Shown here piece after piece: positions 9,019-52,366 of a DNA stretch of 64,000 nucleotides. The first letter of the stretch is position 1. Each line of letters begins with the position of its first letter. The stretch spans positions 1-64,000 of the forward strand of contig DAOWGI010000109.1 in assembly GCA_030637655.1 (NCBI GenBank), in the 5' to 3' direction. The notes below the pieces were generated by a model. It searched no databases. It saw only the letters and a list, made by a program, of their open reading frames with translations, and had not been told where the DNA came from. Both the position numbers and the translations under genes were made by a program. The DNA comes from a candidate division FCPU426 bacterium. GTDB lineage: Bacteria > Oederibacteriota > JAAXVQ01 > JAUVAV01.

Positions 9019-10731
9019 TTATTTTTCTCGCTCCGTTGAATACCGAAAATCTTTCATTTCAATCTGCAAGGTGGTCGTATTATTCCACACATTTTCCGAT
9101 GCATGTCCTACAATATCAATCAAATTATTACAATTTATCTCTGCCATACGCTCACCCAAACCAAAACCTATGACATCCACAACCGCCTTGCGGCCGGCAC
9201 TCACTTTGAATTTCACATGCCGTTCACCCACCAAACGGGGCGGCAAACACACCTGCATTCTTGAAAAATGCAATATAGGCCGGGTATTTTTATATCCAAA
9301 AGGTTCAAACCGTTTTAGTTCTTTTATGAACTGCGGAGTAATATCCGACAAGTCAACCTGAGCATCAATGCACAATTGAGGTTGTTTGTCTTCAGGCTTC
9401 AACTTTTCTTTCGCTATCTTTTCAAGCGATTGACGAAAGGCTTCGATATTTTCGGTTCGCAATGTTACCCCGGCAGCCATGTGATGTCCACCCCACTTCT
9501 CCAAATACTCGGAACTGGCATTAAGCGCTTCGGGCAACGAAAAACCGGGTATACTCCGTCCTGACCCTTTGGCTTCTCCGTTTTTTTCAGACAAAACAAA
9601 ACACGGTCGAAAATACCGTTCACTTAAACGCGAAGCAGCCAAACCAAGAACCCCAATTGGCCAGGCCGGATTAGAAACCACAATCGCATTTGGGAGTTCG
9701 AAAAAGGATCCAACCATTTGCTCCGCTTCATTCAATACTGTTTGTTCAATATTCCGGCGCTCACTGTTTTGCTGATTTAAAAATTGTGCTAAGTCCTGAG
9801 CTGTTTGGGCATCTTGCGTCAGCAGTAAATCAAAAGCTGCTTGGGCATCACCCAGGCGGCCGGCCGCATTCATCCGTGGTGCCAAGCGAAAAGCCAAATC
9901 CGTCGAGGTTAGAGAACCATTTTCCCTGCCAGCACTTTTGGCCAAAGCTCTCAAGCCCGGACGATTCCCGCGATTCATAACAGCCAGACCGGCACGAACC
10001 AAAGAACGATTCTCCCCCCACAAGGGTACGACATCCGCCACCGTGCCAAAGGCCACCAAATCCAAATGTTGCCGCAACTGTTCCGAATCTTTTTCTCCTA
10101 ACGCACCTGCTGTAGCACGAACTACTTGCAGGATCACGCCGACACCGGCCAACAGTTCCAGATCTTCAGGCCCAGTCAGTTTAGGATTCACAATCACATC
10201 AGCCGGCGGCACCTCAGAGCCCGGTTCATGATGATCAGTAATAATGACATCCAAGCTATTTTGTTTTAGCAGCTTAATTTCCTGCGTAGCCGTGATACCA
10301 CAATCCACCGTAATCAAAAGCTTAGCTCCGGTCTTCACTACTTTATCCATGGCCTGCGGATTCAAACCATACCCTTCCAGCATGCGATTAGGCAAATACA
10401 CTTCACAATCCCCTTGCCGTTGACGTATAAATTCCGTCAGCACCGCGGAAGCGGTTATCCCATCCACATCGTAATCACCAAAGATAACTATTTTTTCTTT
10501 TTCTCTAATTGCTTTGGCAATCCGTTCTCCGGCAGCCGGCGTACCGGGCAAATCGCGGAAATCACGCAAACGTAAACCGCTCGGATCAAAAAAATAGCGC
10601 GCGTTTTGCCCTTCCAATCCACGCCCGGCCAATATGGCGGCCGTCATCGGCAAAATATGCAACCTTTGAACCAAAGCATTTATCTTTTCTTCCGGTACAC
10701 GTTCCGGAAATACCCAGCGTTTGTTTGCCAC
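9019..10731 (-). CDS. recJ: ssDNA-specific exonuclease RecJ
   Basis: GDYDVDG, TVDCG, TDHH, GTVADVVPL, NAAGRL, GSGRS and GGH motifs. Confidence 0.96.
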   Translation of the reverse strand: MANKRWVFPERVPEEKINALVQRLHILPMTAAILAGRGLEGQNARYFFDPSGLRLRDFRDLPGTPAAGERIAKAIREKEKIVIFGDYDVDGITASAVLTEFIRQRQGDCEVYLPNRMLEGYGLNPQAMDKVVKTGAKLLITVDCGITATQEIKLLKQNSLDVIITDHHEPGSEVPPADVIVNPKLTGPEDLELLAGVGVILQVVRATAGALGEKDSEQLRQHLDLVAFGTVADVVPLWGENRSLVRAGLAVMNRGNRPGLRALAKSAGRENGSLTSTDLAFRLAPRMNAAGRLGDAQAAFDLLLTQDAQTAQDLAQFLNQQNSERRNIEQTVLNEAEQMVGSFFELPNAIVVSNPAWPIGVLGLAASRLSERYFRPCFVLSEKNGEAKGSGRSIPGFSLPEALNASSEYLEKWGGHHMAAGVTLRTENIEAFRQSLEKIAKEKLKPEDKQPQLCIDAQVDLSDITPQFIKELKRFEPFGYKNTRPILHFSRMQVCLPPRLVGERHVKFKVSAGRKAVVDVIGFGLGERMAEINCNNLIDIVGHASENVWNNTTTLQIEMKDFRYSTEREK

Positions 10732-10895
10732 TGCGACAATTCCTTCCTAAGTAAAAATCCCAAATTCCAAATCACGAAATCGGACTTGAAATTCGGGACT
10801 CATCTGACTTCCAAATCAATGAATAACTCAGAATCAAATCCAAACATCAAACCCAACAGGCGGTTGGGTTATAGGATCACTGTTGGCACACGATA

Positions 10896-12713
10896 TTAAC
10901 TGGCCACCCGCAATAACTCATCGTACGAGGTAATGCCGACCAGCACTTTTTTCGCCACTTGCGCTTTTAAAGAAACAAAACCGGGCGTATCGGCAATGGC
11001 TTTTTTCATAACCGCCGCCGGCGCTTTATTAATAATCATGTCACGAACCGCCTCTTTTATCGGAACAACCTCAAAAACAGCCTGTCTGCCGCGATATCCG
11101 GTTTTCGCACAGCTATCACAACCTCTACCACGCGCCAATACAGCCTTGCGGCCTGCAGGCGCGCCAAGATATTTAGCAATTTCCGGAGGTGCCGCATAGG
11201 TTTCTTTGCATTCCGGACACACCATGCGAACCAAACGTTCATTTACAATAACGGTTAAGGCAACTCCAACTAAATACGATTCAATACCCATATTTATCAT
11301 ATACTGAACCGCAGAAACCGCATCATTGGCGTTAACCGTTGAAACCACTAGATGTCCGGAAGGGACTGCATCTAAAACCAGACGGGCAATCTCCAAATCA
11401 TTCATATCTCCTATAAGCAAAACATCCGAATCTTGATCCAGCATGGCACGCACTCCACCTTGATAGGTGCTGCCGCGCTTTTCATTTACCACGAACTGAT
11501 TGATGCCCGGCAAAGAATAATCCACATCCTCATCCACGGCGGATACATTCTTGGTAGGCTGATTTAACGAACTTAAAGTAGCATAGGCTGTCGTGGTCCG
11601 GCCACTTTGTCGTGGTCCGGTAATCAGAATCAAACCATGCGGTTGTTGGGTCATACGACGATATAGCTCATGCTGGGACGGCTCCATCCCCAATTTATCC
11701 AATTCCAGAATAACACCCTCGGAATTCAGAATATGCATGACCACCTTTTCTCCCCACATGGTCGGAACGATTAATATGGACATAGAGACATCTTTGCCCG
11801 GGATTTTTAATTTCATACGACCCTGTTGGGCTTGACCCTTGGTTTGGGTATTCATCTCTGCCATTACTTTTAAGCGCGTTGCCAAAGCGTTGGCCAAAGA
11901 ACGAGGTGGAGACTGCACTTCCTGCAAAATCCCGTCAATTCGCCAGCGAATACGAAAACTTTTTTCATACGGCTCAAAATGAATATCCGTAGCTCTGACT
12001 TTATTGGCTTCGACCAGCACACTGGTTAAAAAGTTGATGACCGGAGTATCCCCGGGACCACTGGCTGTGGCAGTAGGTATTGCAGACGTCGGCTCCGGAG
12101 CTGTAGCAATATTCGCTGCCGCTGCGGTTGCGGCCGAAGACATACTTGGAGTATTCCTGGCAGATATAGGAGACGGTTCTTGCCCCCGGGGTTTCGCTGC
12201 CATTCCACCCGGCGCTGTACCAAACGTATCGTCTTCTACAGATGCTTTCACCAGTTCTCCGGCATCATCTTCTTTGAAACCAAAATATTTATCAATCGCT
12301 GCTTTGACCTCTTTTTCCGAAGATAAACGTAATTCCAGATCACAACGGGTGGTCAACTTAATATCATCCGTGACAAAAACATTGGTAGGATCAGCCATTG
12401 CCAATATTAAATTATTTCCTTTTTTACTGACCGGCACCACATGTTGGGTACGCATCAATTGTTCGGGAATTAGTTTCAATAAAGCCGTTGGGATATTCTG
12501 CATCTCAGACAGCGAGATATACGGCACACCCATTTGAGTCCCTAAAAAGGCCATTAACACTTCCAAGGTAACATACCCCTTGCGTACCATTACTTCACCG
12601 ACCTTTTCACCGGTTACTTTTTGCTCCTGCAAACATTCTTTCAGCTGTTCTTCAGTTATAATTTCTTCATCCAAAAGCATCTCGCCGATACGATGGCCTT
12701 TGTTTGTTGCCAT
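10896..12713 (-). CDS. PilB/GspE-family secretion ATPase homolog with N-terminal MshEN domain and degenerate catalytic motifs
   Basis: RIGEMLL..IITEEQL...L.EQ, DIHFEP, RIDGIL and CPEC/CDSC are present. Walker A reads GPRQSGRTTT and the Walker B region reads LLIGDMND. Confidence 0.88.
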   Translation of the reverse strand: MATNKGHRIGEMLLDEEIITEEQLKECLQEQKVTGEKVGEVMVRKGYVTLEVLMAFLGTQMGVPYISLSEMQNIPTALLKLIPEQLMRTQHVVPVSKKGNNLILAMADPTNVFVTDDIKLTTRCDLELRLSSEKEVKAAIDKYFGFKEDDAGELVKASVEDDTFGTAPGGMAAKPRGQEPSPISARNTPSMSSAATAAAANIATAPEPTSAIPTATASGPGDTPVINFLTSVLVEANKVRATDIHFEPYEKSFRIRWRIDGILQEVQSPPRSLANALATRLKVMAEMNTQTKGQAQQGRMKLKIPGKDVSMSILIVPTMWGEKVVMHILNSEGVILELDKLGMEPSQHELYRRMTQQPHGLILITGPRQSGRTTTAYATLSSLNQPTKNVSAVDEDVDYSLPGINQFVVNEKRGSTYQGGVRAMLDQDSDVLLIGDMNDLEIARLVLDAVPSGHLVVSTVNANDAVSAVQYMINMGIESYLVGVALTVIVNERLVRMVCPECKETYAAPPEIAKYLGAPAGRKAVLARGRGCDSCAKTGYRGRQAVFEVVPIKEAVRDMIINKAPAAVMKKAIADTPGFVSLKAQVAKKVLVGITSYDELLRVAS

Positions 12714-12872
12714 AGTAAAACCTCCCCAAGGGAAAATAGATATCGCTTTTTACCCGAGTGTACCAGGCGTCGTGTTTCTTTTATCTATTGTAAATTAATT
12801 CGGCTTATTTTAAAGAACAATTTTGTTTTTTTTACTTTTTTCCTAGAGTATGGGGTGACAATAGTAAAATCA

Positions 12873-14555
12873 TTATCCTCCGAATAAACCAAACAACCCT
12901 TTTTTCTTCTCTTTTTTTGTTACTTCCGCTTCATCACCCGGTTTCGCATCTTTTACTTCATTATAATCAACCTGCTTACCTTTATCTTGTTTTGCCGGCA
13001 TTTTGACTTCAGATTGTTCTTTGGCATATTGTGTAATTTCAGATTCAGTCAGACCAGAATTCGGAGTAATTTTGATTGCCTGCTCTTTACCGCTTCCTAA
13101 ATCCGTCGCAGAAACGCGCACAATACCATTGGCATCCACATCAAAAGAAACTTCGATTTGGGGCACTTCGCGCGAGGCTGGTGGAATTCCAACCAAGTCA
13201 AAAGTCCCAATCAGTTTGTTGTCTGCTGCCATTGGTTTTTCTCCTTGATACACCTGAATCCGAACAAAGGTCTGGTTGTCTTTGGCGGTTGAAAAAATCT
13301 CGCCTTTTCGAACCGGGATGGTGGAATTTTTTTCTATAATTTTCGACATCATACCGCCTTCAGTACGAATTCCCAAAGAAAACGGAGTGACGTCCAGGAG
13401 TAAGATATCCCGGATATTCCCCTTCAAGACCGAGGCTTGAATCGCGGCGCCACCGGCTACGGTTTCATCAGGATTAACTCCCGGATAAGGCTCTTTATTA
13501 AATAATTTTTTAACCGCTTCACGGACTTTGGGCATCCGTGTCATACCACCAACCAAAACGATCTGATCAATATTCTGTGACTTTAACCCGGCGTCTTTGA
13601 GCGCTTGCTTACAAGGTTCAATGGTCATTTCCACCAGTTCTTTCGTCAAATCCTCATACTTCGAACGGGTCAGTTTGGCATTCAAGTGCTTGGGACCGGA
13701 ACTGTCTGAGGCAATAAACGGCAGCGTTATTTCTGCGGTCGGTTTTTCCGAGAGTTCACATTTGGCTTTTTCCGCCACCTCTTTTAAACGCTGCAAAGCA
13801 ATCCGATCCCGACGCAAATCAACTTTTTCATCCTTTTTGAATTCTTCGATCAGCCAGTCAATAATCTTCTGGTCAAAGTCATCACCACCCAAGTGTGTAT
13901 CACCCGATGTGGATTTGACTTCAAAAACACCATTCCCCAGTTCAAGAATACTAATATCAAATGTCCCACCGCCCAAATCATAGATAGCCACTTTGCGTTT
14001 GGTCTTCCGGTCAAAACCCGATGCCAAGGAAGCCGCAGTCGGTTCATTGATAATACGCAATACCTCCAAGCCGGCAATTTTTCCCGCATCCTTAGTGGCT
14101 TGACGCTGACTGTCATTGAAATAAGCCGGACAGGTAATTACGGCTTTTTCGATTTTCTCATTGAGAAAAGCTTCCGCATCCCGCTTAATTTTCACTAATA
14201 TCATAGCTGAAATTTCCGGCGGCGAATAATCACGCCCATAAATTTCAACCCGCACATCACCATTGCTGGCGGCTTTTAAGCTATACGGCATCAACTCACG
14301 GTCTTTTTCCACCGCAGGATCTTCCAGTTTCAATCCCATAAAACGTTTTACTGAAAAGACGGTGCTTTCCGGATTAATAACTTCTTGTCGTTTGGCCGGT
14401 TCGCCCACCACCATTTCACCGTTTTTCATAATGCTAACCACTGAAGGTGTGGTACTCATCCCTTCCGCGTTAGGAATAATCACCAATTCATTATCCTGCA
14501 TCAGAGCCGCGCAGGAATTAGTTGTGCCCAAATCGATGCCAATAATCTTAGACAT
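12873..14555 (-). CDS. dnaK: DnaK/Hsp70 paralog lacking the C-terminal helical lid
   Basis: [23 protein letters not shown], the DILLLDVTP linker and SBD-beta are present. 560 aa, ending [11 protein letters not shown]. Confidence 0.9.
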
Positions 14556-14575
14556 GGTAGCCGCCTTTCACCTCT

Positions 14576-15115
14576 TTACTTCTTTGCTAATTCATCCAAA
14601 CGACGCATGGTACGCTGTATTTCCTGATCTTTGGAATTCAGTGCGATTACTTTTTTAAAATAATTCCGCGCCTCATCGTTCTTCCGCATATCCACCATAC
14701 ACAACCCAATATTGTATAGGGCTTCCGGGAATTCCGGCCACTGCCTAACGGTTTCCCGGAACTTGGCCAAAGCTTTCGTTTTTTGACGATCAAACAATGC
14801 AACCCCGGCATTAAATTGCGCTAAGGCCTCATTCCATTGTTGTTTTTGTTTTTTCTGAAAGAACATAAACTTCTTTTCCGGAACTTTCTTTTTGACCGAA
14901 CAGTAAATCTGGAAATTATGCAGTTTGCGCTTTTCCGGATTGGCGAGACACTGAAACGCTTCAACCACCTTGGCGGTCATCTTATGCGCCCAGTCAGCAC
15001 GGTCCGGATTGTGATCCGGATGGTATTTATACAGCAACATCCGATAAGCGGTTTCAATCTCTTCAAGTTTTGCGGCTGGGTAAACTTCCAGGATTTCGTA
15101 ATAATTTTCACCCAC
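14576..15115 (-). CDS. J-domain (HPD) + TPR co-chaperone
   Basis: NYYEILEV...YHPDHNP J domain and C-terminal TPR (EALYNIGLC). GTG start at 15115 after a GGAG RBS. Confidence 0.9.
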   Translation of the reverse strand: MGENYYEILEVYPAAKLEEIETAYRMLLYKYHPDHNPDRADWAHKMTAKVVEAFQCLANPEKRKLHNFQIYCSVKKKVPEKKFMFFQKKQKQQWNEALAQFNAGVALFDRQKTKALAKFRETVRQWPEFPEALYNIGLCMVDMRKNDEARNYFKKVIALNSKDQEIQRTMRRLDELAKK

Positions 15116-15131
15116 AATAGCACTCCTTTTT

Positions 15132-16589
15132 TTAAAACTTCGCTCCGGTGACCCGATAGACTTCCAAAGTCTCACCCGTATCCGGCATTTGCAAATCTTC
15201 CACTTTTTCTCCGCGGATTATGTTGGTTACCCGCCGAAAAATATCACCGGCCACCATAACCACTGAAAATGGTTGCTCACTCATTTTCTGGGTAAAATTC
15301 AAATAATCCCTAATGACTTCCATGGTGCCGATCCCTTTTGGGGTTAACAGCGATCCCATGGCTTCACCCGAGGCTATGCCCAAAGATATAAAAATAGGAG
15401 TCTGATTCTGATTGACTCTAAATTTATTAATTTCAGCCAAGGCTTTTTGAACATTCACGGCAGTTAAAATCGCGCGGCGATCATCGTCCTGATGGGTCTG
15501 CGGAATACCAAAAACCACCATGAACACATTTTCTGTGAACTTATACACTTGACCTTCGTACTCAAATACGGTCGCGACAAACTTGCGAAAATAAGTTTCC
15601 AAGGCTTCAGACAACGAGGCCGCGTCTTGCGTGGTTGCCTGTTGGGCAACCTGGGTAAGGTCCGCAAATAAAATAGTTGCCGGATACCGCTTATCTTCAC
15701 TGGCTTGCAAAGCAATAGCTGAAGTATCCACAAATCGTTCTTGGGCTTCTTTGCTGATATACAATTCAAAGGAAGCTTTTATCTTCTCCACTTCCTTCAA
15801 TTCATCCGCCACCACATCAAAAGCATCTTTGATACGGACTTTTTCTTTTAAATCCTGGACCATAAGATTGAAACTTTGGGTTAACAACCCAATCTCATCT
15901 TTGCTTTTTACCAGTGCGATTACGCCTAAATCCCCTTTGGCCACTTTGGCCATCGCAGTAGTCAAATCAGCAATCGGACGGGTAACGGTTTTAGAAACCC
16001 AGAGCGCCCCCCCAAAACCCAAGGCCATCATTACCAAAGTCAACAATATATTACGAATCTTGGCCAGCATAATTTCCTGTTTCAAAGCCAATAAGGAAAA
16101 GCGCAGATTCACGGTTGCCACCCGAGTATCTTCTACTATGATATCACCGGAAATCCTGGCTGTATTTCCAAGTGTGAATTTGTACTTTGCCAATTTGAGC
16201 AAGGTAGCTTCGCTCTCAGCAATCCCTTCCAAAGACGCGTCCAACGAGGCTGCTGTCCCCGGATTGACGGTAAATGCTTTCACTTCTCCTTCATTATCCA
16301 CAATGGAGATATACAGAATGTTGGAGTCCAGATTGCGTACCACTTTAATGAACTCCCGAAAAATCGGCCAGGCCACTCGTTCGCCAGCCAGGGGTTCAAT
16401 CAACTTCAAGGCCGCGATCATATTCGCCACATCTGTCATCCGCTGGTCCATTTCCTGATTTTTCAATTTGGATTCTTGAATAATCGAGAAATAAGAAACT
16501 ATACCCATGATTAGCGTAACCAGGGTAATGACCAACATGGTTATTTTATGCGTTAATCCGAAACGAACCGTTTTTTTTGCTGTCGCCAT
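15132..16589 (-). CDS. Two-TM sensor with HAMP and a degenerate class III nucleotide-cyclase-like domain
   Basis: Two TM helices, HAMP (RPIADL...DEIGLLTQSFNLM), then ATILFADL...YKFTENVFMVVFGIP and GIASGE. Confidence 0.85.
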   Translation of the reverse strand: MATAKKTVRFGLTHKITMLVITLVTLIMGIVSYFSIIQESKLKNQEMDQRMTDVANMIAALKLIEPLAGERVAWPIFREFIKVVRNLDSNILYISIVDNEGEVKAFTVNPGTAASLDASLEGIAESEATLLKLAKYKFTLGNTARISGDIIVEDTRVATVNLRFSLLALKQEIMLAKIRNILLTLVMMALGFGGALWVSKTVTRPIADLTTAMAKVAKGDLGVIALVKSKDEIGLLTQSFNLMVQDLKEKVRIKDAFDVVADELKEVEKIKASFELYISKEAQERFVDTSAIALQASEDKRYPATILFADLTQVAQQATTQDAASLSEALETYFRKFVATVFEYEGQVYKFTENVFMVVFGIPQTHQDDDRRAILTAVNVQKALAEINKFRVNQNQTPIFISLGIASGEAMGSLLTPKGIGTMEVIRDYLNFTQKMSEQPFSVVMVAGDIFRRVTNIIRGEKVEDLQMPDTGETLEVYRVTGAKF

Positions 16590-16604
16590 AGTTATCCGGG
16601 TTCC

Positions 16605-18008
16605 TTAAGGGATATAGGTAAAGCCATAGACACTCTTATCAAACGAACCTACGGCTAATATAGCATCGGAAATCATGGGCGATGAATTAACCGCTCCACC
16701 TGCCGTATATTTCCATTTTTCTTTCCCATCGTTGGCCCGTAAAGCGTATAGATCCGAACCTGCTCCTACATAAACAACACCATTAAATTCAACCGGCGAA
16801 GAAAGCACGGTGCCTTTCAATTTCGCTTTCCAACGGATACCTCCGGTACTATTGTTTAAGGCGTATAGATGCTTGTCTTTTGAACCAACAAATAAATACT
16901 TGCCGGAAATACAGGGAGACGAAGATACCCAACCATTGGTAGCGCACTTCCAAACTAACTCACCATCATCAATATTCAATGCATAAATACTCTTGTCATC
17001 CGAGCCAAAAAAGACTTTGTCGTCACCAATCGCAGCAGAAGAGAAAATCTGGCGATTAGCTTTAAACTTCCAATTCACACTCCCGCCGGCTAGATCCAAG
17101 GAGTAAAATATTCCGCCCAAGGTCCCGATATATACTATACCCTTTTTTACTTTGGGGCTGGCGGCAATTGGACCACCTAAGTTTTTCTTCCAGACCTCAG
17201 AACCATTGCCGGCATTATAGGCATACAGCACACCATCCATGCTGCCGACCAAGGCAATACCGCCGACCACCGCCGGGCTGGAAAAATTGATAGCCCCGCC
17301 GGTAAGCGTTCTCCAAAGCATTTTACCGGTTTGGGCGCTTAAGCAATAGAGATAAGTATCTTGGGAACCAATATAGACTTTTCCTTTCACTACAGTAGGT
17401 GATGAAGTCACCGGAGCGCCGGTAGTCTTTTCCCATATTTGGCGGCCATCTTTGGCATTGATGGCATAGACTTTGCCATCCCCGGAGCCAATGTACACGA
17501 CCCCGCCAACCAAAGTCGGCGAACTATCAACCACACCTCCAGTCCGGTATTTCCACTGTAAATCCAGGGGTGGCGAAATCGGAATGCCGGAAGCAGGCCG
17601 GTTTTTTGCATTCTTACGAAACATGGCCCAACCGGTTGCCTGGTCAGAAGATATTTTTGGAACAGCCGCCTTGGTGGGCTTGGATGCGGGTTTTTTCTCT
17701 GGTACTGCCTGTATCTGTTCCTTAACTGCGGCAATTTGCTGTTCGATCTGTTTCACTTGGCGTTTAGAAGTACGGCCGCCTGATTTGCGAACTTGTGCCA
17801 GCGCCTGACGCAATTCTTCCAGTTTACGCTGTTGTTCAGCAATAATTCTCTGTTGTTCCGCGGCTTTCTGTTGCGTTTGCGCGTTTCCAGAGACATTAAA
17901 CTGTATTTTTATTTCTTTTTCCTGGGAAGGTTTACCGCATCCGATTATTAAACCAAAAACAAATGGTACGAGCAGAAGAAATCCAATCGCCCGTCGTAGT
18001 ATAGTCAT
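16605..18008 (-). CDS. Lipoprotein with coiled coil and PQQ-like/BamB-type beta-propeller
   Basis: Signal peptide with lipobox (LIIG-C). About 8 repeats of 'SSP.V.GG.VYIGS.DG..YA.NA..G...W'. Confidence 0.9.
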   Translation of the reverse strand: MTILRRAIGFLLLVPFVFGLIIGCGKPSQEKEIKIQFNVSGNAQTQQKAAEQQRIIAEQQRKLEELRQALAQVRKSGGRTSKRQVKQIEQQIAAVKEQIQAVPEKKPASKPTKAAVPKISSDQATGWAMFRKNAKNRPASGIPISPPLDLQWKYRTGGVVDSSPTLVGGVVYIGSGDGKVYAINAKDGRQIWEKTTGAPVTSSPTVVKGKVYIGSQDTYLYCLSAQTGKMLWRTLTGGAINFSSPAVVGGIALVGSMDGVLYAYNAGNGSEVWKKNLGGPIAASPKVKKGIVYIGTLGGIFYSLDLAGGSVNWKFKANRQIFSSAAIGDDKVFFGSDDKSIYALNIDDGELVWKCATNGWVSSSPCISGKYLFVGSKDKHLYALNNSTGGIRWKAKLKGTVLSSPVEFNGVVYVGAGSDLYALRANDGKEKWKYTAGGAVNSSPMISDAILAVGSFDKSVYGFTYIP

Positions 18009-18065
18009 ATTGTTAAAACCTCCACGTTTCTCGAGTATTAATTTTATCCATTAATTTTCCTACAA

Positions 18066-18095
18066 ATTCTAGCATGCGTTAATTTAAATTGTCAA
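18066..18095 (-). promoter_or_regulatory. Sigma70-type promoter for the lipoprotein-dnaK operon
   Basis: Minus strand TTGACA-18 bp-TAGAAT, with a TGn extended -10. Confidence 0.6.
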
Positions 18096-18174
18096 TCTCA
18101 CTTTATATATTTTGGCAAATTATTAAACACCGGAAAATGTTGAATTTTAAAGATAGGTTCACAAAATTTCAACT

Positions 18175-18304
18175 GTAAGGGCGGGTTTGAACCGAGGGGA
18201 ATCCCATACGATTGCTCCTCCGGTCGGGGAAACCTGCCCTTGTTTTTATATGTAACAACGGGCGGATTAAAAACCTGGCGGGCAGGTTTGGAACCTGCCC
18301 CTAC
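18175..18304. repeat. REP-like palindromes; the first carries a 40-bp insert
   Basis: GTAAGGGCGGGTTTG[18190-18229]AAACCTGCCCT, and an empty copy GGGCAGGTTTGGAACCTGCCCCTAC at 18280-18304. Confidence 0.75.
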
Positions 18305-18327
18305 TTTTTAAAATCCGTCCTTATACC

Positions 18328-21300
18328 CTAATTCAAGGAGACCTCTTCCATAGCCATAGAAGTGACCGGTTGCAGGGACTGTTCCTCTTTATCTCCTTTG
18401 AATTTCACAGCTATCAGACTGGATACACCTGATTCTTGCATGGTCACACCATAGAGAACACCTGCTGTTTCCATAGTAATCTTATTATGCGTAATGACAA
18501 TAAACTGTGATTTTTTCGCAAATTCATTGAGAATGCGACCAAAACGCATGGTATTGGTATCATCCAAAGGCGCGTCCATTTCATCAAAAATGCAGAAAGG
18601 ACTGGGTTTAATCAAGAATATGGCAAACAGCAGTGCAATAGCAGTCAGCGCTTTCTCTCCACCTGAAAGCAATGAGATGTTTTGCAAACGTTTTCCCGGA
18701 GGCCGGGCAATGATCTCTATCCCTGTTTCCAGCATATTAGTCTCATCCAATAAGACCAGATCCGCATCTCCGCCATTAAACAATCTCCTGAACACCTCTT
18801 TGAATTTAATCCGAACCTGGGAGAAGGTGTCGGAAAAGCGTTCCCGGCTCTCTAGGTTAATCTTGGTAATCAAGCGCTGCAAGTTATCCTTGGCCTCTTT
18901 CAAATCCGATAATTGTTTGGTTAAGAACTCGTAGCGCTGCTCCAATTCATCGTATTCTTCCATAGCCACTAAATTTACAGATCCCATAGTATTGATTTTG
19001 TCTTTCAATTCTTTAATTCTGGTCCGAATTGCTTCCGTATCTTCGCTGGTCTCAACCGCAGTTTCCTCACTGCCTTCTTCATCGTTTTCCAAATTCAAAT
19101 TCAGTTTGTATTCTTCTTCCATATAGGTCTCAAGTGACTTGAGATTCATTTTCAATTGCGTTTTTTTCAACTCGAATTCATGCAATTCCTGTTTGGTGGT
19201 ATTTAAAATATCCTGAATCTCACGCAACCCGGCCTCTTTCTCTTTCTTCTGCGCAGTCAGCGTTTCCCGCTGTTGCTTCATGCCGGACAAGGCCTTTTCC
19301 TGGATTACCTTATTTCCCGATAAGCGTTCCAATTGCGCCTGTTTCTCTTTCATCTGATAGTCCATATCCGACATACGGTCTTGGTCACGTTTAATGTTGG
19401 TGATTTTCTCGGCTTTTTGAGCGGAGATCTCATTCAATTCCGTAGTCACCCGCCCGGTTTCAGTATTCAGGTTGCTCAATTGCTGCTCCAGGGAAGCAGA
19501 ACTCACCCGCAATTCACCGGCCCGCAGTGAACGTTCATCATATTCCCGGCGCCGCTCCTCAATCTCTTCTTGATGATTGGTCAACTCTTCCTGGGTTTTA
19601 CGGTCTGTCAGTTCCAATTCCATCAGTTGTTTGGCAGTCTCAGCATGCTCACTCAGAGTCTTATTCAAGAGTTCTATGACCTGCGCCCGTTCTCCTTGCA
19701 AGACAACAGTCTGTTTTTCCACTTCCTGCAATTGGGTTTGGGTTCCTTCCAAGGACTTCTCAATCTGGGCAGCTTTGATTTCCATTTCGTGCAATTGTGA
19801 ATTCACGGTTTCCAAGCCGCCGGTGGTTTCCTCCAAACAAAGCTTGGTCGTGTCCATTTCTGCCTGAGTATTGACCAGGTTTTTCTGTAAAACCTCCAGC
19901 TCAGCTTTTAATTCTTCGATCTCGCGTTCACGTCCCAGCAATCCTTTTTCCATCACATCCTGACTACCGCCGGTCAACCAGCGCTCCCGGGTCTGAATTT
20001 CACCATTCAGAGTGACCAAGGTTACCTGAGCACCGGCCTCTCGCGCTTTTTGCATGGCTTCCATATCTTGCACAATTACCACATCGTCCAGCAATTGATT
20101 AAAAATACCCCGAAAACGTTCATCAATGCGCACCAAATACTTAGCCCAGCCCAGCGTACCGGGTAATTTTAACCATGGTTCGGATTGTGCTTCTCCCGGT
20201 AATGTTTCTATTTCTGAGTGCAAATAATTTTCCAAGGGAATAAAAGTGGCACGGCCACGGTTTCCAGCTTGCAGAAATTCAATAACCGGCTTGGTATCAC
20301 TCTCTTTTTGAAGCAAAATATACTGCAAACGATGGCCTAACAAAGCTTCAAAAGCGAACTCGTATTTTTCATCCGTACGAATAAAATTGAGTACCGGACC
20401 GATAATACCGGGAAAGCGTTCAGGCTTGGATTTTTTTTCCAGCAGAATGGTTTTGGCTCCCGTTTCATATCCATCCAGCCCGTTTTTCAACTCTTCAATC
20501 CACGTCAAGCGGGAGGTCAACTGGGTCAGGGTAGTATTAAAATTTTCCAACATCGACGTAAGTGTTTTCAGCACATGTTCCAAACGCTCTTTTTCCTGTG
20601 TCAGCTTTTCCTGTTCCGCGCGCAAAGCGGCAATGGATTCCGCGTTATTTTTCGCATCGGTTTCCAGGATATTTTTTTCCCGGAGCATTTCCTGATTCTG
20701 CTCATGCAAGGATTCCAGTTGCAATTCCAATTTGGCCAGCCTTTGCTCCTGTTCACCTCGACGAATTCCTAAGTTTTTCAGAGTTCCGCGCAGAGTAGAC
20801 ATTTGATCCACAATTTCCAACAACCGGGATTGCTGGTCCTGCACCCGGGCGGCACGTTCTTTCAACTCCTGTTCCAATACGTTTAAACGTTCTTCTTCCT
20901 GACTTAGGGATTCCTGGCAGGAAAGCAATTCATTTTCTTTTTGTTCACGCGCTTCCAGAGTCCCGGCGTTCTGTTCCCTAAGCTGTGTCTCTTTAGTATT
21001 GAGCGTTGTCAGTTCGGTTTCCAAACGTTCAATACTGATTTGCAAATCATTCTTTCGCAATTCAGAGGAAGAAACAAAATCTTCGGTTTTAATCATTTCT
21101 TCATTCACACGATGAACCGATTCCTGCATTTCAGTCAATTTCGCTTCTGCGTTTGTGAGCGCATCGTTCAATCCGGAGATTTCAGCCTCCAGGGTTAGCC
21201 GGCGCACTTCCTGTTCCTCGGTCCGGGTTTGGCACCCTTCCCATTCCTGCTCAATCTTTCTTAGCTGACGCCGTTTCTCTTTCAGTTCCCGTTTGCCCCG

Positions 21301-21984
21301 TGAGACTTCCAGGGTAGTCAATTCCTGTTTGCAGGATTGAAAACGACGCGCTTTTTGAACTTGGCGTTCCAATGAATTAGTCTGACGTTTCACTTCCACC
21401 GCGATATCATTCACGCGCAGATAATTTTGTTCTGTGGATTCCAGTTTCCGCAGCGACTCATCTTTGCGCGCTTTGTATTTTGAAATCCCGGCAGCTTCTT
21501 CAAACACAAAACGACGATCCGCGGGTTTTGAAGAAACAATGAGATCAATCTTACCTTGCTCCAAAATAGAATAAGAATTGGTGCCGATGCCGGTATCCAT
21601 AAACAAATCCTGAATGTCCCGCAAACGACACGGAACTTTATTGATAAGGTATTCACTCTCACCTGACCGGAAGGTACGCCGGGTAATGGTAATTTCTTCA
21701 TGTTGGCTCTTGAGTTGCCTGTCACTGTTGTTCATAGTCAGAGAGACTTCGGCCATGCCCACGGCTTTTCTTTGATCCGTACCGTTAAAAATAACATCTT
21801 CCATCCGTGCTCCGCGCAGTGATTTCGCGCTCTGTTCGCCCAATACCCAGCGAATGGAATCAACAATATTGGATTTACCACAACCGTTAGGACCGACTAT
21901 AGCGGTTATGCCTGATTCAAAATTAAGTGTGGTTGGATCAACAAAAGACTTAAACCCTTGCATTTCCAGTTGTTTAAAATACAC
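18328..21984 (-). CDS. smc: Chromosome segregation protein SMC
   Basis: GFKSF, GPNGCGKSN, hinge GRATFIPL, LSGGEKALTA and FDEMDAPLD motifs. Long coiled coils. Confidence 0.97.
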   Translation of the reverse strand: MYFKQLEMQGFKSFVDPTTLNFESGITAIVGPNGCGKSNIVDSIRWVLGEQSAKSLRGARMEDVIFNGTDQRKAVGMAEVSLTMNNSDRQLKSQHEEITITRRTFRSGESEYLINKVPCRLRDIQDLFMDTGIGTNSYSILEQGKIDLIVSSKPADRRFVFEEAAGISKYKARKDESLRKLESTEQNYLRVNDIAVEVKRQTNSLERQVQKARRFQSCKQELTTLEVSRGKRELKEKRRQLRKIEQEWEGCQTRTEEQEVRRLTLEAEISGLNDALTNAEAKLTEMQESVHRVNEEMIKTEDFVSSSELRKNDLQISIERLETELTTLNTKETQLREQNAGTLEAREQKENELLSCQESLSQEEERLNVLEQELKERAARVQDQQSRLLEIVDQMSTLRGTLKNLGIRRGEQEQRLAKLELQLESLHEQNQEMLREKNILETDAKNNAESIAALRAEQEKLTQEKERLEHVLKTLTSMLENFNTTLTQLTSRLTWIEELKNGLDGYETGAKTILLEKKSKPERFPGIIGPVLNFIRTDEKYEFAFEALLGHRLQYILLQKESDTKPVIEFLQAGNRGRATFIPLENYLHSEIETLPGEAQSEPWLKLPGTLGWAKYLVRIDERFRGIFNQLLDDVVIVQDMEAMQKAREAGAQVTLVTLNGEIQTRERWLTGGSQDVMEKGLLGREREIEELKAELEVLQKNLVNTQAEMDTTKLCLEETTGGLETVNSQLHEMEIKAAQIEKSLEGTQTQLQEVEKQTVVLQGERAQVIELLNKTLSEHAETAKQLMELELTDRKTQEELTNHQEEIEERRREYDERSLRAGELRVSSASLEQQLSNLNTETGRVTTELNEISAQKAEKITNIKRDQDRMSDMDYQMKEKQAQLERLSGNKVIQEKALSGMKQQRETLTAQKKEKEAGLREIQDILNTTKQELHEFELKKTQLKMNLKSLETYMEEEYKLNLNLENDEEGSEETAVETSEDTEAIRTRIKELKDKINTMGSVNLVAMEEYDELEQRYEFLTKQLSDLKEAKDNLQRLITKINLESRERFSDTFSQVRIKFKEVFRRLFNGGDADLVLLDETNMLETGIEIIARPPGKRLQNISLLSGGEKALTAIALLFAIFLIKPSPFCIFDEMDAPLDDTNTMRFGRILNEFAKKSQFIVITHNKITMETAGVLYGVTMQESGVSSLIAVKFKGDKEEQSLQPVTSMAMEEVSLN

Positions 21985-23981: not shown

Positions 23982-25289
23982 CTACCGATCCATGATGACG
24001 GACATCAGATCAGCCTCACACACCAAGTCTTCACCAACAAAGGCCTTGCCGTGCATCTTGGCAATTTTGGAACGAAGCTTGTCTACCTCAATTTCTAAGC
24101 GGAGTTGATCACCGGGCACCACTGGTTTGCGGAATTTGACATTATCAATTCCCATAAAATACACTACTTTGTCCCGCGCATCCGGAAAACTCTTCATCAA
24201 CAAGACTCCACCGCATTGTGCCATGGCTTCAATGATTAACACGCCCGGCATAATCGGATGCCCGGGAAAATGTCCCTGAAAAAACTGCTCGTTCATCGTC
24301 ACATTTTTTATACCCACCACGCGCTTGCCTATTTCCAAATCAATCACGCGATCAACCAGTAACATCGGATACCGGTGCGGCAATAAAGTTTCAATCTCTT
24401 TGGCATCAATAATCATTTTTTCTTTCCCCCTCTCCATAATACCATTTCGTTCTTTTATTTTTTTAAGTTGCTGAACCAAACGCGCGTTCATTTCATGGCC
24501 GGTGTAATGCGCCACAAAATGGCCCTGCACAGCCGAACCAAAAAGAGCCAAATCACCGATAAAATCCAGAATTTTATGCATCCCCAGCTCTTGCTCAGTG
24601 CGTAAAGGCGGATTCAACGGTCCCTGTTCACCGATAACCAGAGCATTTTCCAGGCTGCCGCCTTTGGCCAAGCCATTAGATTTAAGCCAGTCTATTTCCT
24701 GCTCCAGGCAGAAGGTTCGGCAGTGCGCAACTTGTTTTTCAAATACTTCAGGTGATAATTCCACATCAACCCTTTGGGGTTGTAACCAGGGATGATCATA
24801 ATATAAATTGTAGGTAATACGCAAGCCGGGATAGGGCCAACCGACAATTTCCTTAGAACCGTTTTGGAGGATAACCGGTTTTGGCAGTCGAAATACCTGC
24901 CGTTTACTTCCCGGAATTTCGACAATACCTGTTTTAAGAATGGCTTGTACATATGGCTGAGCCGAACCATCCATGATCGGTGGTTCAGAGGCAGTCAATT
25001 CAACCAGGCAATTATCTACTTCCAAGCCGGCTAAGGCTGCCAATGCATGCTCAATCGTATGAATTTTAACGCCATTTTCCTGAATCGTGGTTCCGCGCGT
25101 GGTTTGCGAAACCAATTCCGGACGAGGAGAAATTCGTGGTTCTCCCGGTATATCTTTACGCACCAGAATATATCCGGTATCCGCCGGCGCGGGACAAAAT
25201 GTCAGAGTTGTTTCCAGCCCGGTATGTAAACCAATCCCGGTAAGCGCCACAGGCTTAGCCAAAGTACGCTGCCAAACGTCTGATTTCAT
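23982..25289 (-). CDS. lpxC: Bifunctional LpxC deacetylase / FabZ dehydratase fusion
   Basis: LpxC motifs GIGLHTG, TIEHAL and HKILDFIGDL, followed in frame by FabZ motifs LPHRYPMLLVD and FFQGHFPGHPIMPGVLIIEAMAQ. Confidence 0.95.
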   Translation of the reverse strand: MKSDVWQRTLAKPVALTGIGLHTGLETTLTFCPAPADTGYILVRKDIPGEPRISPRPELVSQTTRGTTIQENGVKIHTIEHALAALAGLEVDNCLVELTASEPPIMDGSAQPYVQAILKTGIVEIPGSKRQVFRLPKPVILQNGSKEIVGWPYPGLRITYNLYYDHPWLQPQRVDVELSPEVFEKQVAHCRTFCLEQEIDWLKSNGLAKGGSLENALVIGEQGPLNPPLRTEQELGMHKILDFIGDLALFGSAVQGHFVAHYTGHEMNARLVQQLKKIKERNGIMERGKEKMIIDAKEIETLLPHRYPMLLVDRVIDLEIGKRVVGIKNVTMNEQFFQGHFPGHPIMPGVLIIEAMAQCGGVLLMKSFPDARDKVVYFMGIDNVKFRKPVVPGDQLRLEIEVDKLRSKIAKMHGKAFVGEDLVCEADLMSVIMDR

Positions 25290-35275: not shown

Positions 35276-37708
35276 TTATGCCTCAACTTTCACCTCAAAC
35301 TTAACGACACCGTTGATGGGTTTGGTCTCCACGGTATCGCCGGTCTTGACAACGCCTTTGAGGATCAATTCCGCTAATGGATCTTCAATGAAGCGCTGAA
35401 TCGAACGCTTTAGAGGACGCGCTCCCATTTGCGGACTGTAGCCTTCCTCAATTAGAAAATCTTTAACTTCCCGGCTGACATCCAAGGTTATTTCTTTTTC
35501 TTTCAACCGCTCATTCACATAGCCCATGAGCAGATCAATAATTTCTTCCAAGTGCTGTTTGGCCAGGCTATGGAATACAATAACCTCATCCACCCGGTTG
35601 AGAAACTCCGGATTAAACACTTTCTTGACTTCACCCATAATCTTGTCTTTCATGCTCCGGTGCGTGCTCTCGGTAGATGCCGGTTGAAAACCCAATCCAG
35701 CGCCGCCCTTGTCAATCAAGCGCGCGCCGATATTGCTGGTCATGATTACCACGGCATTTTTAAAATCAACAACACGTCCGTTATTATCCGTCAGCCGGCC
35801 GTCCTCCAGCACTTGCAGCAGAATATTAAATACATCCGGATGCGCTTTTTCAATCTCATCAAACAAAATAACCGAATATGGATTGCGCCGTACTTTCTCG
35901 GTTAATTGACCACCCTCATCATGTCCGATGTATCCCGGAGGCGCTCCTACCAAGCGTGAGACGGCAAATTTCTCCATGTACTCGGACATATCAATTCGAA
36001 TCAGCATACTCTCATCCTCAAAGAGAAACTCTGCCAAGGCACGGGCCATTTCGGTCTTGCCGACCCCGGTGGGACCCAGGAAGATAAAGGATCCGATGGG
36101 GCGTTTAGGATCCGCGACCCCGGCCCGGGAACGGCGCACGGAACGAGAGATCGCATTGATGGCTTCTTCCTGACCAATAACGCGTTTATGCAATTCTTCT
36201 TCCATACGCAAGAGTTTGGCGGATTCCTGCTCTGCCAATTTGAAAACCGGCACTCCGGTCCATTTGCTAATAATATAAGCAATATCTTCAGCTTCCACGG
36301 TACTCATGTTTTTTGTCCGGGACTGTTCCCAGAGCCGTTTCTTTTCCTCTTTTTTCTGACGCAAGGCTTTTATTTTATCCCGCAAGCTGGCGGCATATTC
36401 AAATTCCTGGGTTTTAATGGCTGCTTCTTTTTCTTTGGTAATGGTGTCAATCTCTTCTTCAGTCTTCTTCAAATCCGGAGGCAGGATGGCAGCCGCGAGT
36501 CGTGCCCGGGCTCCTGCTTCGTCCATCACATCAATGGCCTTATCCGGCAATAGTCTGCCGGAAATATAGCGGTTCGACAATTTTACTGCCGCGCTCAAAG
36601 AGTCATCTGAGTAACGGACATGATGGTGTGACTCATAACGATCACGTAATCCTTTTAAAATCAGTATCGCTTCCTCCACATTGGGCGCATCCACTTTGAT
36701 GGATTGAAAACGCCGTTCCAAAGCGCCGTCTTTTTCAATATACTTTCGATATTCATCCATGGTAGTGGCGCCAATACATTGTACCTCACCGCGAGCCAAG
36801 GCCGGTTTTAACATATTGGAAGCATCGATCGCTCCTTCGGCAGCGCCGGCTCCCACCAAGGTATGCAACTCATCAATAAATAAAATAATGGTTGCGGCGG
36901 CTGACTTGATTTCCTGCATCACGGTTTTCAAACGTTCTTCAAACTCACCGCGATATTTAGTGCCCGCCACCACTGCCGCCAAATCCAAGGTTACGATTCG
37001 TTTCCCCAGCAATAATTCCGGCACATTGCCGGCCACGATATTCTGAGCCAAACCTTCGGCAATCGCTGTTTTTCCAACACCCGGCTCACCGATTAATACC
37101 GGATTATTTTTAGTACGGCGACAGAGAATTTGAATTACGCGTTCGATCTCATCCTCCCGGCCAATAACCGGATCCAATTTTCCTTCGCGGCTCAATTGGG
37201 TGAGATCACGTCCGAAAGCATCCAAAGTGGGACTATTGGTTTTGGCCTGACTCTGCAGGTATTTCGGAAGGTTGCCGCCCAATAGATAAATGGTCATCTC
37301 ACGCGCTTTTTCAATTTTAAGATTGAAGCGTTCCAAAACCCGCGCCGCAACACCCTCACCCTCACGAATCAAACCCAAGAGAATATGTTCCGTCCCTATA
37401 TAATTATGCCCCAGGGCTTGAGCTTCTTCCAAGGCCAGCTCCAGCACCTTTTTGGCTCGTGGTGTGAACGGCACCTCACCCAAAGTCATGGTACCGCCGC
37501 CCATGTTGATGGCTTTCTCTATTTCCAATTTTATCCGTTCCAGATCGATCCCAATATTCTCCAGCACTGCAGTGGCAACCCCGCCACCTTCCTTAATCAA
37601 TCCCAGCAAAAGATGTTCAGTGCCAATGTAATCATGACCCAAACGCGCCGCTTCTTCTCTGGCTAAATTGATTATTTTTTTTGCTCGTTCAGTAAATTTA
37701 TCAAACAT
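35276..37708 (-). CDS. clpC: ATP-dependent Clp protease ATPase ClpC
   Basis: Clp-N repeats, two AAA modules ([16 protein letters not shown]), UVR middle domain. Confidence 0.97.
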
Positions 37709-37750
37709 ATGACAGCTTCCTCCTAATTTAAGTCGGGGTGAATATACACT

Positions 37751-38824
37751 TCATTTTCGTTTTTTTTTGTCACTCAAGTAGTGTTTTAAGCTTTTTCGCA
37801 GCCATTCCGCGCGTCTCAAAAACTCATCAGTTCCGGTTAACGTTTTTTTGGCCAAGAGCTGCAAATGAGAGGTTTGGCTTTGGAGCATTAATTCATTAAA
37901 CACGGTTTTGGGTATATCCGGAATAATCTTCACTTCCGCACCCAGACGTAATATGGATAAAAGATCCAATGCTTCTTCAAACCCCAGCATGCGACAATGG
38001 CTTAAGATTCCTTTCGCCCTCCCTACTTTATCCTCGAGCAAAGCGGATTCATCCTTCACTAGTTTTTGGCGGGCGTCTTTCTCCCGATCCATAATTTGAC
38101 GAATCACACCAACCAATTGCTGGATAATTTCCTCCTCGGTTCTGCCTAAGGTCACTTGGTTGCTGACCTGAAAAAACATACTGCGCAATTCCGAGCCTTC
38201 GCCGTAAAATCCGCGCACAGCCAAGCTCATGTGCAAAACTGCCTGCAATACCTGCACAATGCCCCTGGTTAAAGTTAGGGCCGGCAAATGGAGCATTACC
38301 GAAGCGCGCATGCCGGTCCCCACATTAGTGGGGCAGGCGGTTAAAAAACCAAATTCTTTATGCGTGGCCAATTCAAAACCCCGGCTTAGTTGTTCATCCA
38401 GCTGTTGACTCATCTTCAAGCAGCGTTCCAAGTTGAGTCCTTCATAGATAACCTGCGTTCGCAGATGATCTTCTTCATTGACCAAGATGGAAACCGATTG
38501 TCCCGGCCCCAATGCCAAACCCGTATAATCAGGTTCCCGGGCGGATTCAAGATGCATCAAACCGCGTTCCGCCAAAATTCCGCGCTGCATAATATCCATG
38601 TCGCGCAAACGATAAAATTGCAGAGCTGGTTTCAACGAAATTTTTAAAATCTGCTGTTCAATCTTACTTAAAAGTATTTCCCGTTCCTGTTTGTCCATAG
38701 CCTGCGGAAAGCGGTATTTTTTCAGATTCCGGGCTAAGCGCACGCGTGAGGATATAACAATATTTTCATTGGGCGAAGTATTTTTCAACCACGCTGGAAA
38801 CGCTATTTTTTTACCCGGCATCAC
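37751..38824 (-). CDS. mcsB: Protein arginine kinase McsB
   Basis: SSRVRLARNL, NEEDHLR and LTACPTNVGTGMRASVMLHLP motifs. Confidence 0.94.
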   Translation of the reverse strand: MMPGKKIAFPAWLKNTSPNENIVISSRVRLARNLKKYRFPQAMDKQEREILLSKIEQQILKISLKPALQFYRLRDMDIMQRGILAERGLMHLESAREPDYTGLALGPGQSVSILVNEEDHLRTQVIYEGLNLERCLKMSQQLDEQLSRGFELATHKEFGFLTACPTNVGTGMRASVMLHLPALTLTRGIVQVLQAVLHMSLAVRGFYGEGSELRSMFFQVSNQVTLGRTEEEIIQQLVGVIRQIMDREKDARQKLVKDESALLEDKVGRAKGILSHCRMLGFEEALDLLSILRLGAEVKIIPDIPKTVFNELMLQSQTSHLQLLAKKTLTGTDEFLRRAEWLRKSLKHYLSDKKKRK

Positions 38825-52200: not shown

Positions 52201-52366
52201 GTCCTCACTCCTCTTTATTGTATTTTGATAATTTACCCTGCAGCAAACTGCAGGGAATAATCCGGTTTAATTTCCAACTTTGCGCACCCTGCGCCTCGGC
52301 GGTGAAAACGTCCTGAAATCACAGGTTTAAAAACTATGAATATTGTCGGCTAATCATCCGAAAAAT

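Follow-up and report, generated by a model that had tools for sequence, protein, structure and literature searches.

The theme of a specialised DnaK/J pair coupled to the type IV pilus (T4P) protein PilB is already known. Here we describe a cluster of five minus-strand genes, at positions 10896-18008 of a 64,000-nucleotide stretch of contig DAOWGI010000109.1 (the window), in which a lid-less DnaK-type Hsp70 is encoded next to a J-domain/tetratricopeptide repeat (TPR) protein and a PilB-like protein with eroded catalytic motifs. The window comes from the FCPU426/Goldbacteria-Firestonebacteria group. As described in the portions of the literature that treat these systems, Nostoc DnaK1 and DnaJ3 are found at active T4P motors, bind PilB in two-hybrid assays, contact Hfq and are required for polysaccharide secretion (PMC9239167), which ties the cyanobacterial system to PilB by two-hybrid contact, co-localisation and control of both motility and polysaccharide secretion. 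In Synechocystis and Nostoc, the motility J protein (Sll1384, Npun_F1160) combines a J domain with a C-terminal TPR (PMC13710413, PMC9948308). In the Myxococcus xanthus PilB-StkA-Dif pathway, which controls exopolysaccharide (EPS), PilB signals independently of ATP hydrolysis: an ATPase-dead Walker A mutant still signals, genetically upstream of the DnaK homolog StkA, and the protein carries motifs that bind cyclic di-GMP (c-di-GMP), according to the relevant part of PMC5544727. Two further systems share single features with the window. E. coli HscC is a specialised Hsp70 encoded beside its own class C J proteins, the tail-anchored DjlB and DjlC; its presumed site of action is the plasma membrane, with native proteins as clients (PMC8215388, in its account of HscC). 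The inactive GGDEF domain of FimX is a dead signalling-enzyme domain that has been kept for regulation or docking in a pathway with a PilB-family protein at its end (PMC11656802, in its account of FimX).

Compared with these systems, the cluster looks like the cyanobacterial and myxobacterial DnaK-PilB axis with its roles split and hard-wired. The likeness to DnaK1/DnaJ3 is one of architecture alone, namely a specialised DnaK with a small J protein that has a C-terminal TPR. DnaK1 has a normal alpha-helical lid (PMC13710413, in the part that describes the protein), unlike the window Hsp70; the cyanobacterial PilB is a working motor, whereas the PilB-like protein of the window has eroded motifs; and the cyanobacterial genes are not described as one cluster with pilB in the portions of PMC9239167, PMC13710413 and PMC9948308 that concern them, where the system involves no pseudo-cyclase receptor or lipoprotein. 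In M. xanthus, as far as the cited part of PMC5544727 goes, one PilB does both jobs, whereas here a separate, naturally eroded clade stands beside the DnaK. HscC, in the same account as above (PMC8215388), keeps the alpha-helical subdomain of its substrate-binding domain (SBD-alpha, the lid), and there the J protein rather than the Hsp70 carries the membrane anchor; unlike HscC, the window Hsp70 scores as DnaK-type, and no HscC model is among its NCBIfam matches. The window receptor differs from FimX in having a class III cyclase fold and in being membrane-bound with a HAMP domain, and any link from it to PilB is putative. In the literature searched, neither the clade of lid-less DnaKs nor that of degenerate PilBs is described, nor is their pairing or an operon that joins them with a pseudo-cyclase receptor.

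Our best overall reading, held tentatively and at somewhat less than even odds, is that the five genes form a conserved two-layer unit of the FCPU426/Goldbacteria-Firestonebacteria lineage. The features of the cluster are as follows:

18066 to 18095, minus strand: sigma-70-like promoter, TTGACA-18 nt-(TG)TAGAAT, a consensus match only (11/12, with TG extension)
16605 to 18008, minus strand: lipoprotein with a PQQ-like beta-propeller, 467 aa (PF13570, PQQ_2, lipobox Cys)
15132 to 16589, minus strand: HAMP receptor with two transmembrane segments and a predicted dead class III cyclase-homology domain, 485 aa (Pfam, AlphaFold2, Foldseek)
14576 to 15115, minus strand: class C J-domain/TPR protein by its profiles (DnaJ and TPR), 179 aa
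12873 to 14555, minus strand: lid-less DnaK-type Hsp70 with a disordered tail, 560 aa (HSP70 profile, AlphaFold2, tree)
12714 to 12872, minus strand: 159-bp spacer from the Hsp70 gene to the PilB-like gene; a weak promoter-like site lies at 12814-12787 (sequence scan)
10896 to 12713, minus strand: PilB/GspE-family protein, 605 aa (T2SSE, MshEN, motif alignment, tree)
10850 to 10870, minus strand: terminator-like hairpin after the PilB-like gene, with an 8-pair stem and a weak T-run, a consensus match only

The five genes, their domains and the intergenic gaps of 15, 16, 20 and 159 bp are as an earlier, sequence-only reading of this DNA had given them: open reading frame (ORF), Pfam and NCBIfam data agree. 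The cluster lies between smc (18328-21984) and recJ (9019-10731).

The Hsp70 is about 60% identical to E. coli DnaK, in an alignment that ends near residue 513; the HSP70 Pfam profile (1e-223) is matched over positions 1-535 of 599, and the NCBIfam match stops at position 527 of 625. In the AlphaFold2 model, beta strands at 417-495 are followed by a single helix (504-515) and then by disorder (514-560, pLDDT ~30). The alpha-helical lid (SBD-alpha, helices A-E) is absent from this model, which bears out the sequence-only reading of a DnaK without lid. Catalytic residues Lys70 and Glu171 and the phosphate loop DLGGGTFD are invariant in 43/43 members of the lid-less family, the linker DILLLDVT is likewise invariant across the 43 lid-less sequences, and the beta subdomain (SBD-beta) is kept.

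The lid-less proteins form a group of their own. In a tree of the nucleotide-binding domain and SBD-beta core, drawn from the best 120 of 8000 matches, 47 sequences make up a single lid-less clade (support 1.0), consisting of 17 proteins with a GLFGLFG-type C-terminal tail, 27 with a SIFDIF-type tail (KKKKSIFDIFKKKE) and 3 partial sequences, while the 73 sequences outside it comprise 71 canonical DnaKs and 2 short ones. The members with a recognisable tail amount to 44 clusters at 90% identity, and all proteins with these two tails are 558-581 aa long. The tail is basic. Its two Phe residues (F..F) vary hardly or not at all, and the same holds for the Tyr in a VDY.EV sequence left over from the C-terminal motif usual in DnaK. 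Within the SIFDIF group a single member is named, with the label Aerophobetes. A search of the Atlas with the C-terminal part of the Hsp70 returned Hsp70 fragments only, and no description of a lid-less DnaK clade was found in the literature searched.

The conserved tail could be a basic-aromatic membrane patch, a ligand for the TPR, or a pseudo-substrate tethered to SBD-beta. DnaK favours hydrophobic cores flanked by basic residues. A classical amphipathic, membrane-targeting helix is not supported for the GLFGLFG form, whose helical hydrophobic moment is low (0.08, rank 511 of 550 windows); that of the SIFDIF tail is moderate (0.34-0.61). Separately, one ortholog of the lid-less Hsp70 (P0074, L008:4946-6595; 549 aa) stops before the conserved tail, perhaps through a frameshift, an assembly error or a real loss.

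In its passages on Hsp70 types, a review of 2021 lists only DnaK, HscA and HscC among prokaryotes, all with a lid, and states that the lid slows substrate release (PMC8215388). Loss of the lid should therefore give fast exchange, which is plausible for a chaperone that acts on a folded partner.

The neighbouring J/TPR gene lies in an ORF that runs from 14576 to 15175, with a likely GTG start at 15115, 7 nt after AAGGAG. Its product matches the DnaJ profile (PF00226, 2e-15) and beyond that only TPR, with no G/F region or zinc finger; the HPD motif is invariant in 12/12 sequences, and by these sequence features the protein qualifies as a class C J-domain protein. An exhaustive search was dominated by multi-TPR proteins, with full-length J/TPR proteins accounting for 6 of the best 150 matches (P0301 at 75% identity, P0303 at 43% and four at 31-35%), and look-alikes in the Atlas include a mostly cyanobacterial cluster of J + TPR proteins of ~204 aa. 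No hydrophobic or membrane segment is seen in the J/TPR sequence. Of the membrane-bound Hsp70/J pair put forward in the sequence-only reading, membrane attachment is suggested by the Hsp70 tail only.

The PilB-like protein shares with MshE/PilB-type ATPases an MshEN domain with the c-di-GMP motif, the N2D and C-terminal domain fold and a tetracysteine site. It matches T2SSE (1.5e-94) and MshEN (2.5e-16) in Pfam, scores 58.7 bits against a cut-off of 38 with the NCBIfam c-di-GMP motif model NF053729, and is laid out as an MshEN N-terminus, a low-complexity linker, an ATPase core and a Cys4 zinc site that aligns with that of Geobacter PilB (5tsg). It differs from these ATPases in its catalytic motifs, in equivalog scores that lie below cut-off for both PilB (478.9 vs 675.65) and GspE (426.9 vs 630.25), and in having no pilC or pilM neighbours. 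In the window protein all four motifs are changed: Walker A from GPTGSGKT to GPRQSGRT (K to R), the Asp box from EDPVE to DEDVD, Walker B from GEIRD to GDMND (E to D, R to N) and the His box from LHTNDA to VNANDA (H to N).

Across the orthologs, the Asp box is changed in 27/27 and the Walker B Arg is lost in 24/26; losses of the Walker B Glu (7/26), the His-box His (6/26) and the Walker A Lys (4/27) are rarer, and the window protein, with all three of these changed, is an extreme case in its family. The His-box Thr is changed throughout the clade. Six sister proteins (P0208-P0213, 39-42% identity) keep the P-loop and have a broken Asp box, with D for E in 5 of the 6; they have no Walker B Arg, and an Arg replaces the His-box His. 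By contrast, all 18 of the ordinary PilBs listed just below the orthologs carry intact canonical motifs. In a tree drawn from the 120 matches listed, with two short sequences left out, the degenerate proteins form one clade of 31 (25 of FCPU426 type and the 6 sisters; support 1.0), while 83 of the 87 PilBs outside it have all three canonical motifs. On this evidence the eroded catalytic motifs characterise the clade as a whole, and single branches have independently lost more. At the N-terminus, the c-di-GMP motif is almost invariant across the orthologs, and the combination of eroded motifs with a near-invariant N-terminus is what one would expect of a protein in which sensing of nucleotide counts and its turnover does not. 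No description of a degenerate PilB clade was found in the literature searched.

The two clades may also meet outside the window's lineage. The sister proteins P0208 and P0209, the best non-ortholog matches of the PilB-like protein in 5.8 billion proteins, have longest contigs of 61915 and 9623 bp, the same values as those of the lid-less DnaKs P0081 and P0082, and the 9623-bp pair (P0209/P0082) also shares its source and five member sequences. A lid-less DnaK and a degenerate PilB-like protein therefore seem to be co-located in a second lineage.

Upstream of the J/TPR gene, the receptor consists of two transmembrane segments, a periplasmic alpha/beta (PAS/Cache-like) domain, a HAMP domain (2.7e-14), a long helix and a cyclase-homology domain, with a pLDDT of 73.6 in its AlphaFold2 model. 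The Guanylate_cyc profile is matched in part only, at positions 8-115 of 183 (1.6e-6; 28.3 vs a cut-off of 21.9). The cyclase fold is intact (Foldseek E 4e-12; TM-score 0.67-0.72 to Cya2, CyaB and CyaC) and the first metal Asp is kept (FADL). GD is replaced by EN, the second metal Asp is N or T in 10/10 sequences, the position of the transition-state Asn holds S, G, D or N, Lys replaces Arg, and the GFT motif is lacking. The domain is predicted from these substitutions to be catalytically dead in all orthologs, and the degenerate class III cyclase of the sequence-only reading, with metal Asp2, Asn and Arg lost from an intact fold, thus stands. Since the dead domain is highly conserved with no enzymatic role, it presumably needs a protein partner. 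About 33 receptor orthologs are found at 65-100% identity, before the next matches at 29%; named relatives come from candidate division FCPU426, Firestonebacteria and Goldbacteria.

A cyclase beside an ATPase might also recall an anti-phage defence system, and the cyclase domain has a weak PADLOC match to PycC (1.5e-8, 32 bits). We reject this explanation, to which we assign a negligible probability, on the PADLOC results and on core-genome position: the other four proteins have no meaningful PADLOC match, the cyclase is predicted to be dead, and the cluster occupies a conserved core-genome position in all 9 related loci described below.

The protein encoded by the first gene of the cluster starts with a signal peptide and a lipobox Cys (IIGC); next come an invariant N-terminal segment and a coiled coil, and a Pro/Ala linker leads to the propeller (PF13570, 1.5e-72; PQQ_2, 2e-50). 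The lipobox and the KEKEIKIQFNVSGNAQ segment are kept in 10/10 sequences, and residues 25-60 after the lipobox Cys (KEKEIKIQFNVSGNAQ.QQKAAEQ) are nearly invariant in the same 10/10, more conserved than the propeller itself, which suggests that this segment is a binding interface.

This lipoprotein could in principle be the lineage's BamB, and the cluster a unit for outer-membrane protein assembly; PQQ_2 is the BamB family profile, NCBIfam BamB models score the protein at 192 bits, and bamA, ompH, tamB and lpx genes lie 4-17 kb from the cluster. The BamB scores, however, fall far under the curated cut-offs of 285 and 423, the nearest solved structures are designed or PQQ-like propellers at 200-277 bits against ~90 bits for BamB chains in the PDB, and the lipoprotein carries a conserved N-terminal coiled-coil extension of ~120 residues. 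BamB is not known to have such an extension. We therefore reject the BamB assignment of the lipoprotein, and consider the reading built on it very improbable.

Related loci were collected from a scan of one genome per species with the receptor, which yielded nine. The order propeller, receptor, J/TPR, Hsp70 is kept in 9/9 of these (in L007 the contig ends 16 codons into the Hsp70 gene), and the PilB-like gene comes next in every locus that extends to it (8/8). Within the cluster the genes are closely spaced: 5-22 bp between propeller and receptor genes in 9/10 sequences, 14-24 bp between receptor and J/TPR genes in 5/10, and, in 4 of these 8 loci, 37-43 bp between the Hsp70 and PilB-like genes. 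Gaps to the flanks are wider (smc to propeller 133-497 bp, PilB-like to recJ 81-292 bp).

The cluster proteins are also more conserved than their neighbours, with identities to the window of 80-84% for Hsp70, 68-76% for the receptor, 66-73% for J/TPR, 64-73% for the PilB-like protein and 60-70% for the propeller, against 54-62% for SMC and 49-54% for RecJ. The ratio of nonsynonymous to synonymous substitution rates (dN/dS) could be used in one of six pairs of loci, L003/L009 (dS 0.35-0.48), the other five being saturated in synonymous change (dS >1 or undefined). It is 0.11-0.21 for all five genes, including 0.14 for the pseudo-cyclase and 0.155 for the PilB-like gene, compared with 0.195 for recJ. 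The "degenerate" genes are under purifying selection. These values agree with the view in the sequence-only reading that such genes were repurposed rather than decaying and do not evolve neutrally, the pseudo-cyclase and PilB-like proteins being more conserved than SMC and RecJ.

The same loci bear on whether the receptor belongs with the chaperones at all. The cluster might consist of two unrelated modules, an envelope sensor made of lipoprotein and receptor, with an output of its own, and a separate J/TPR-DnaK unit (perhaps with the PilB-like protein), which have only a promoter or neighbourhood in common. The receptor family ends at the lineage border, where identity drops from 65% to 29%, while the lid-less DnaK clade is wider; the spacer between receptor and J/TPR genes widens to 148-201 bp in 3 loci; and small J + TPR proteins are found in many phyla without the receptor. 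Set against this, all four genes from propeller to Hsp70 remain contiguous in every one of the nine loci, half of the ten sequences have the short receptor-J/TPR gap, and the conserved dead cyclase domain needs a protein partner. We regard the two-module explanation as unlikely.

For the two-layer unit that we prefer, confidence differs between its layers. We consider it on balance probable that the core layer is a dedicated Hsp70/J pair working with a signalling-only PilB-family protein. The lid-less DnaK and the J/TPR protein would form a dedicated and catalytically competent Hsp70 pair whose partner would be the neighbouring PilB-family protein. The latter has retained its fold, its putatively c-di-GMP-binding MshEN end and, for the most part, its P-loop, and appears to have lost the residues that hydrolyse ATP; it would not drive a pilus but serve as a scaffold or as a switch that senses nucleotide. 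The Hsp70/J pair may sense or reset the conformation or the oligomeric state of this switch, and fast on/off binding by a lid-less substrate domain would suit such a native client. The output could go to machinery encoded at another place in the genome, whether a T4P, a type II secretion system or a polysaccharide exporter.

The outer layer is possible and rather doubtful. Here the propeller lipoprotein and the two-transmembrane HAMP receptor would sense an envelope cue. Rather than produce cAMP or cGMP, the dimer of dead cyclase-homology domains would offer the J/TPR-Hsp70 pair a surface for docking or output. That lipoprotein and receptor would feed the chaperone unit, as in the trans-envelope pathway of the sequence-only reading, is drawn only from their contiguity and from the dead domain's need for a protein partner, and the present data lend this part of that reading no support. 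Likewise, we infer the physical contacts, the binding of c-di-GMP, the direction of signalling and the final output.

Several observations weigh against this two-layer reading. The Walker A Lys is kept in 23/27 orthologs and the Walker B Glu in 19/26, so some ATPase activity in the family is possible; the term pseudo-ATPase in the sequence-only reading describes the window protein, with all four motifs changed, and overstates the case for the family. Contigs of equal size show at most that two genes share a contig, not that they are adjacent; only 2 such contigs are involved, and the other 23 DnaKs with a SIFDIF tail have no matching PilB-like protein among the 120 listed. No relative of the pseudo-cyclase is detectable outside the lineage, which makes the outer layer lineage-specific. 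The window holds no pilus, secretion, GGDEF or EAL gene, including pilC, pilM-Q and gsp. The proposed link from the Hsp70/J pair to PilB accordingly keeps the support of the two modified clades, of their apparent co-occurrence in a second lineage and of the published DnaK-PilB cases, and lacks that of pilus or secretion genes nearby. Finally, lpxA, lpxI, smc, recJ, a leuA-like gene and a racemase gene (~20 kb) are collinear in the same loci. With the flanks collinear too, conserved order is weak evidence and could reflect lineage inertia, so that the synteny expected in relatives was found in 9/9 loci and has little force.

This collinearity, within a single-strand housekeeping block, also favours the main rival, a housekeeping coincidence, in which the lid-less protein is the lineage's general and perhaps only DnaK, the J/TPR protein an ordinary co-chaperone, and the neighbours unrelated members of a slowly rearranging core block. 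Besides its similarity to E. coli DnaK and its fully intact catalytic and linker residues, the Hsp70 passes the DnaK model PRK00290 (838.5 vs a cut-off of 648); it falls just under the stricter TIGR02350 (809.3 vs 822.55). dnaK is single-copy in most bacteria, with 6.4% of genomes carrying two or more (PMC11019930, in its survey of copy number). Among the best 120 of 8000 matches, no canonical DnaK lies on a contig sized as the cluster-bearing ones, even those of 0.5-1.6 Mb, a result that is uninformative in fragmented metagenome-assembled genomes.

What a general DnaK would leave unexplained is that the DnaK and the PilB-like protein each belong to a special monophyletic clade, that the two clades seem to co-occur on two sister-lineage contigs, that intergenic gaps are shorter within the cluster than at its flanks, that the lid is gone with a conserved tail in its place, and that the partner J protein has none of the client-binding domains of class A and B DnaJ. 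On this evidence we judge the housekeeping explanation somewhat unlikely. The scanned window ORFs of at least 150 aa include neither a second Hsp70 nor a second PilB, and no HrcA, GrpE or class A DnaJ, in line with the absence of grpE, canonical dnaJ and hrcA noted in the sequence-only reading, and tblastn with the window's own proteins found no grpE, class A dnaJ or hrcA in the 9 related loci. Overall, the observation behind that reading is confirmed and its interpretation as a whole is partly supported.

The transcriptional signals and surroundings of the cluster are less telling. The promoter at 18095-18066 that the sequence-only reading names is the top consensus match within 10500-18500 (8 kb), yet promoter-like sites are no commoner in the region than in shuffled sequence (14 observed vs 13.4 +/- 3.2 expected by chance). 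No terminator-like site was found on the minus strand in the 12714..12872 spacer, and a hairpin is present 3' of smc. Repeated G+C-rich hairpin elements (AACCTGCCC / GGGCAGGTT) occupy 18230-18308, between the smc stop and the cluster promoter, and have no match to an Rfam family; the Rfam scan upstream of the cluster likewise gave no riboswitch or other RNA family, the only matches in the window being two tRNAs. The credible window genes of at least 150 aa are minus-strand genes without exception, and all 32 two-kb bins show negative GC skew, which makes for an unusually long one-strand block; it holds housekeeping genes including lpx, bamA, tamB, clpC, lolDE, lysS and secDF. Because all real genes of the 64-kb window share one strand, the co-direction of the cluster genes carries no information.

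Elsewhere in the window, all on the minus strand, a ClpC-type AAA+ protein, an ATP:guanido phosphotransferase (McsB-like) and a UVR-motif protein (McsA-like) are encoded in a row at 35276-39348, in the same window as lpxA/C/D/I, bamA, ompH and tamB; the ClpC/McsB/McsA trio is best known from Gram-positives. LpxC and FabA/FabZ-like dehydratase domains are joined in a single 435-aa ORF (23982-25289), and a CheW protein and two CheX-domain proteins are encoded at 51341-54397, ~35 kb from the cluster. Running off the window end is a giant ORF (54808-63999; at least 3038 aa), whose sole Pfam match is a weak one to Aldose_epim (9e-7) at residues ~2589-2778. At the other end, a small DUF5681 ORF (539-952) adjoins the tRNA genes at 1455-1528 and 2138-2210.

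Returning to the cluster, its boldest interpretation, which we think improbable, is a transmembrane route that works through chaperone action: the receptor would gate the J/TPR protein, which would fire the lid-less, membrane-proximal Hsp70, which in turn would switch the assembly of a PilB pseudo-ATPase that binds c-di-GMP and serves in signalling only, and the lid-less clade would be a fourth, hitherto unrecognised prokaryotic Hsp70 type, for native-state switching. If this were true, chaperone action, rather than phosphorylation or a second messenger, would be the signalling currency.

Communication between a DnaK paralog and PilB controls polysaccharide secretion and surface behaviour in Myxococcus (StkA) and in cyanobacteria (DnaK1/DnaJ3), where it is unexplained. 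The cluster seems to split and simplify the parts involved into a sensing-only PilB relative, a lid-stripped Hsp70 and a minimal J/TPR adaptor, encoded side by side. With so small and defined a set of proteins, contact and its consequence would be testable in vitro, and the lid-less DnaK clade is of interest in its own right.

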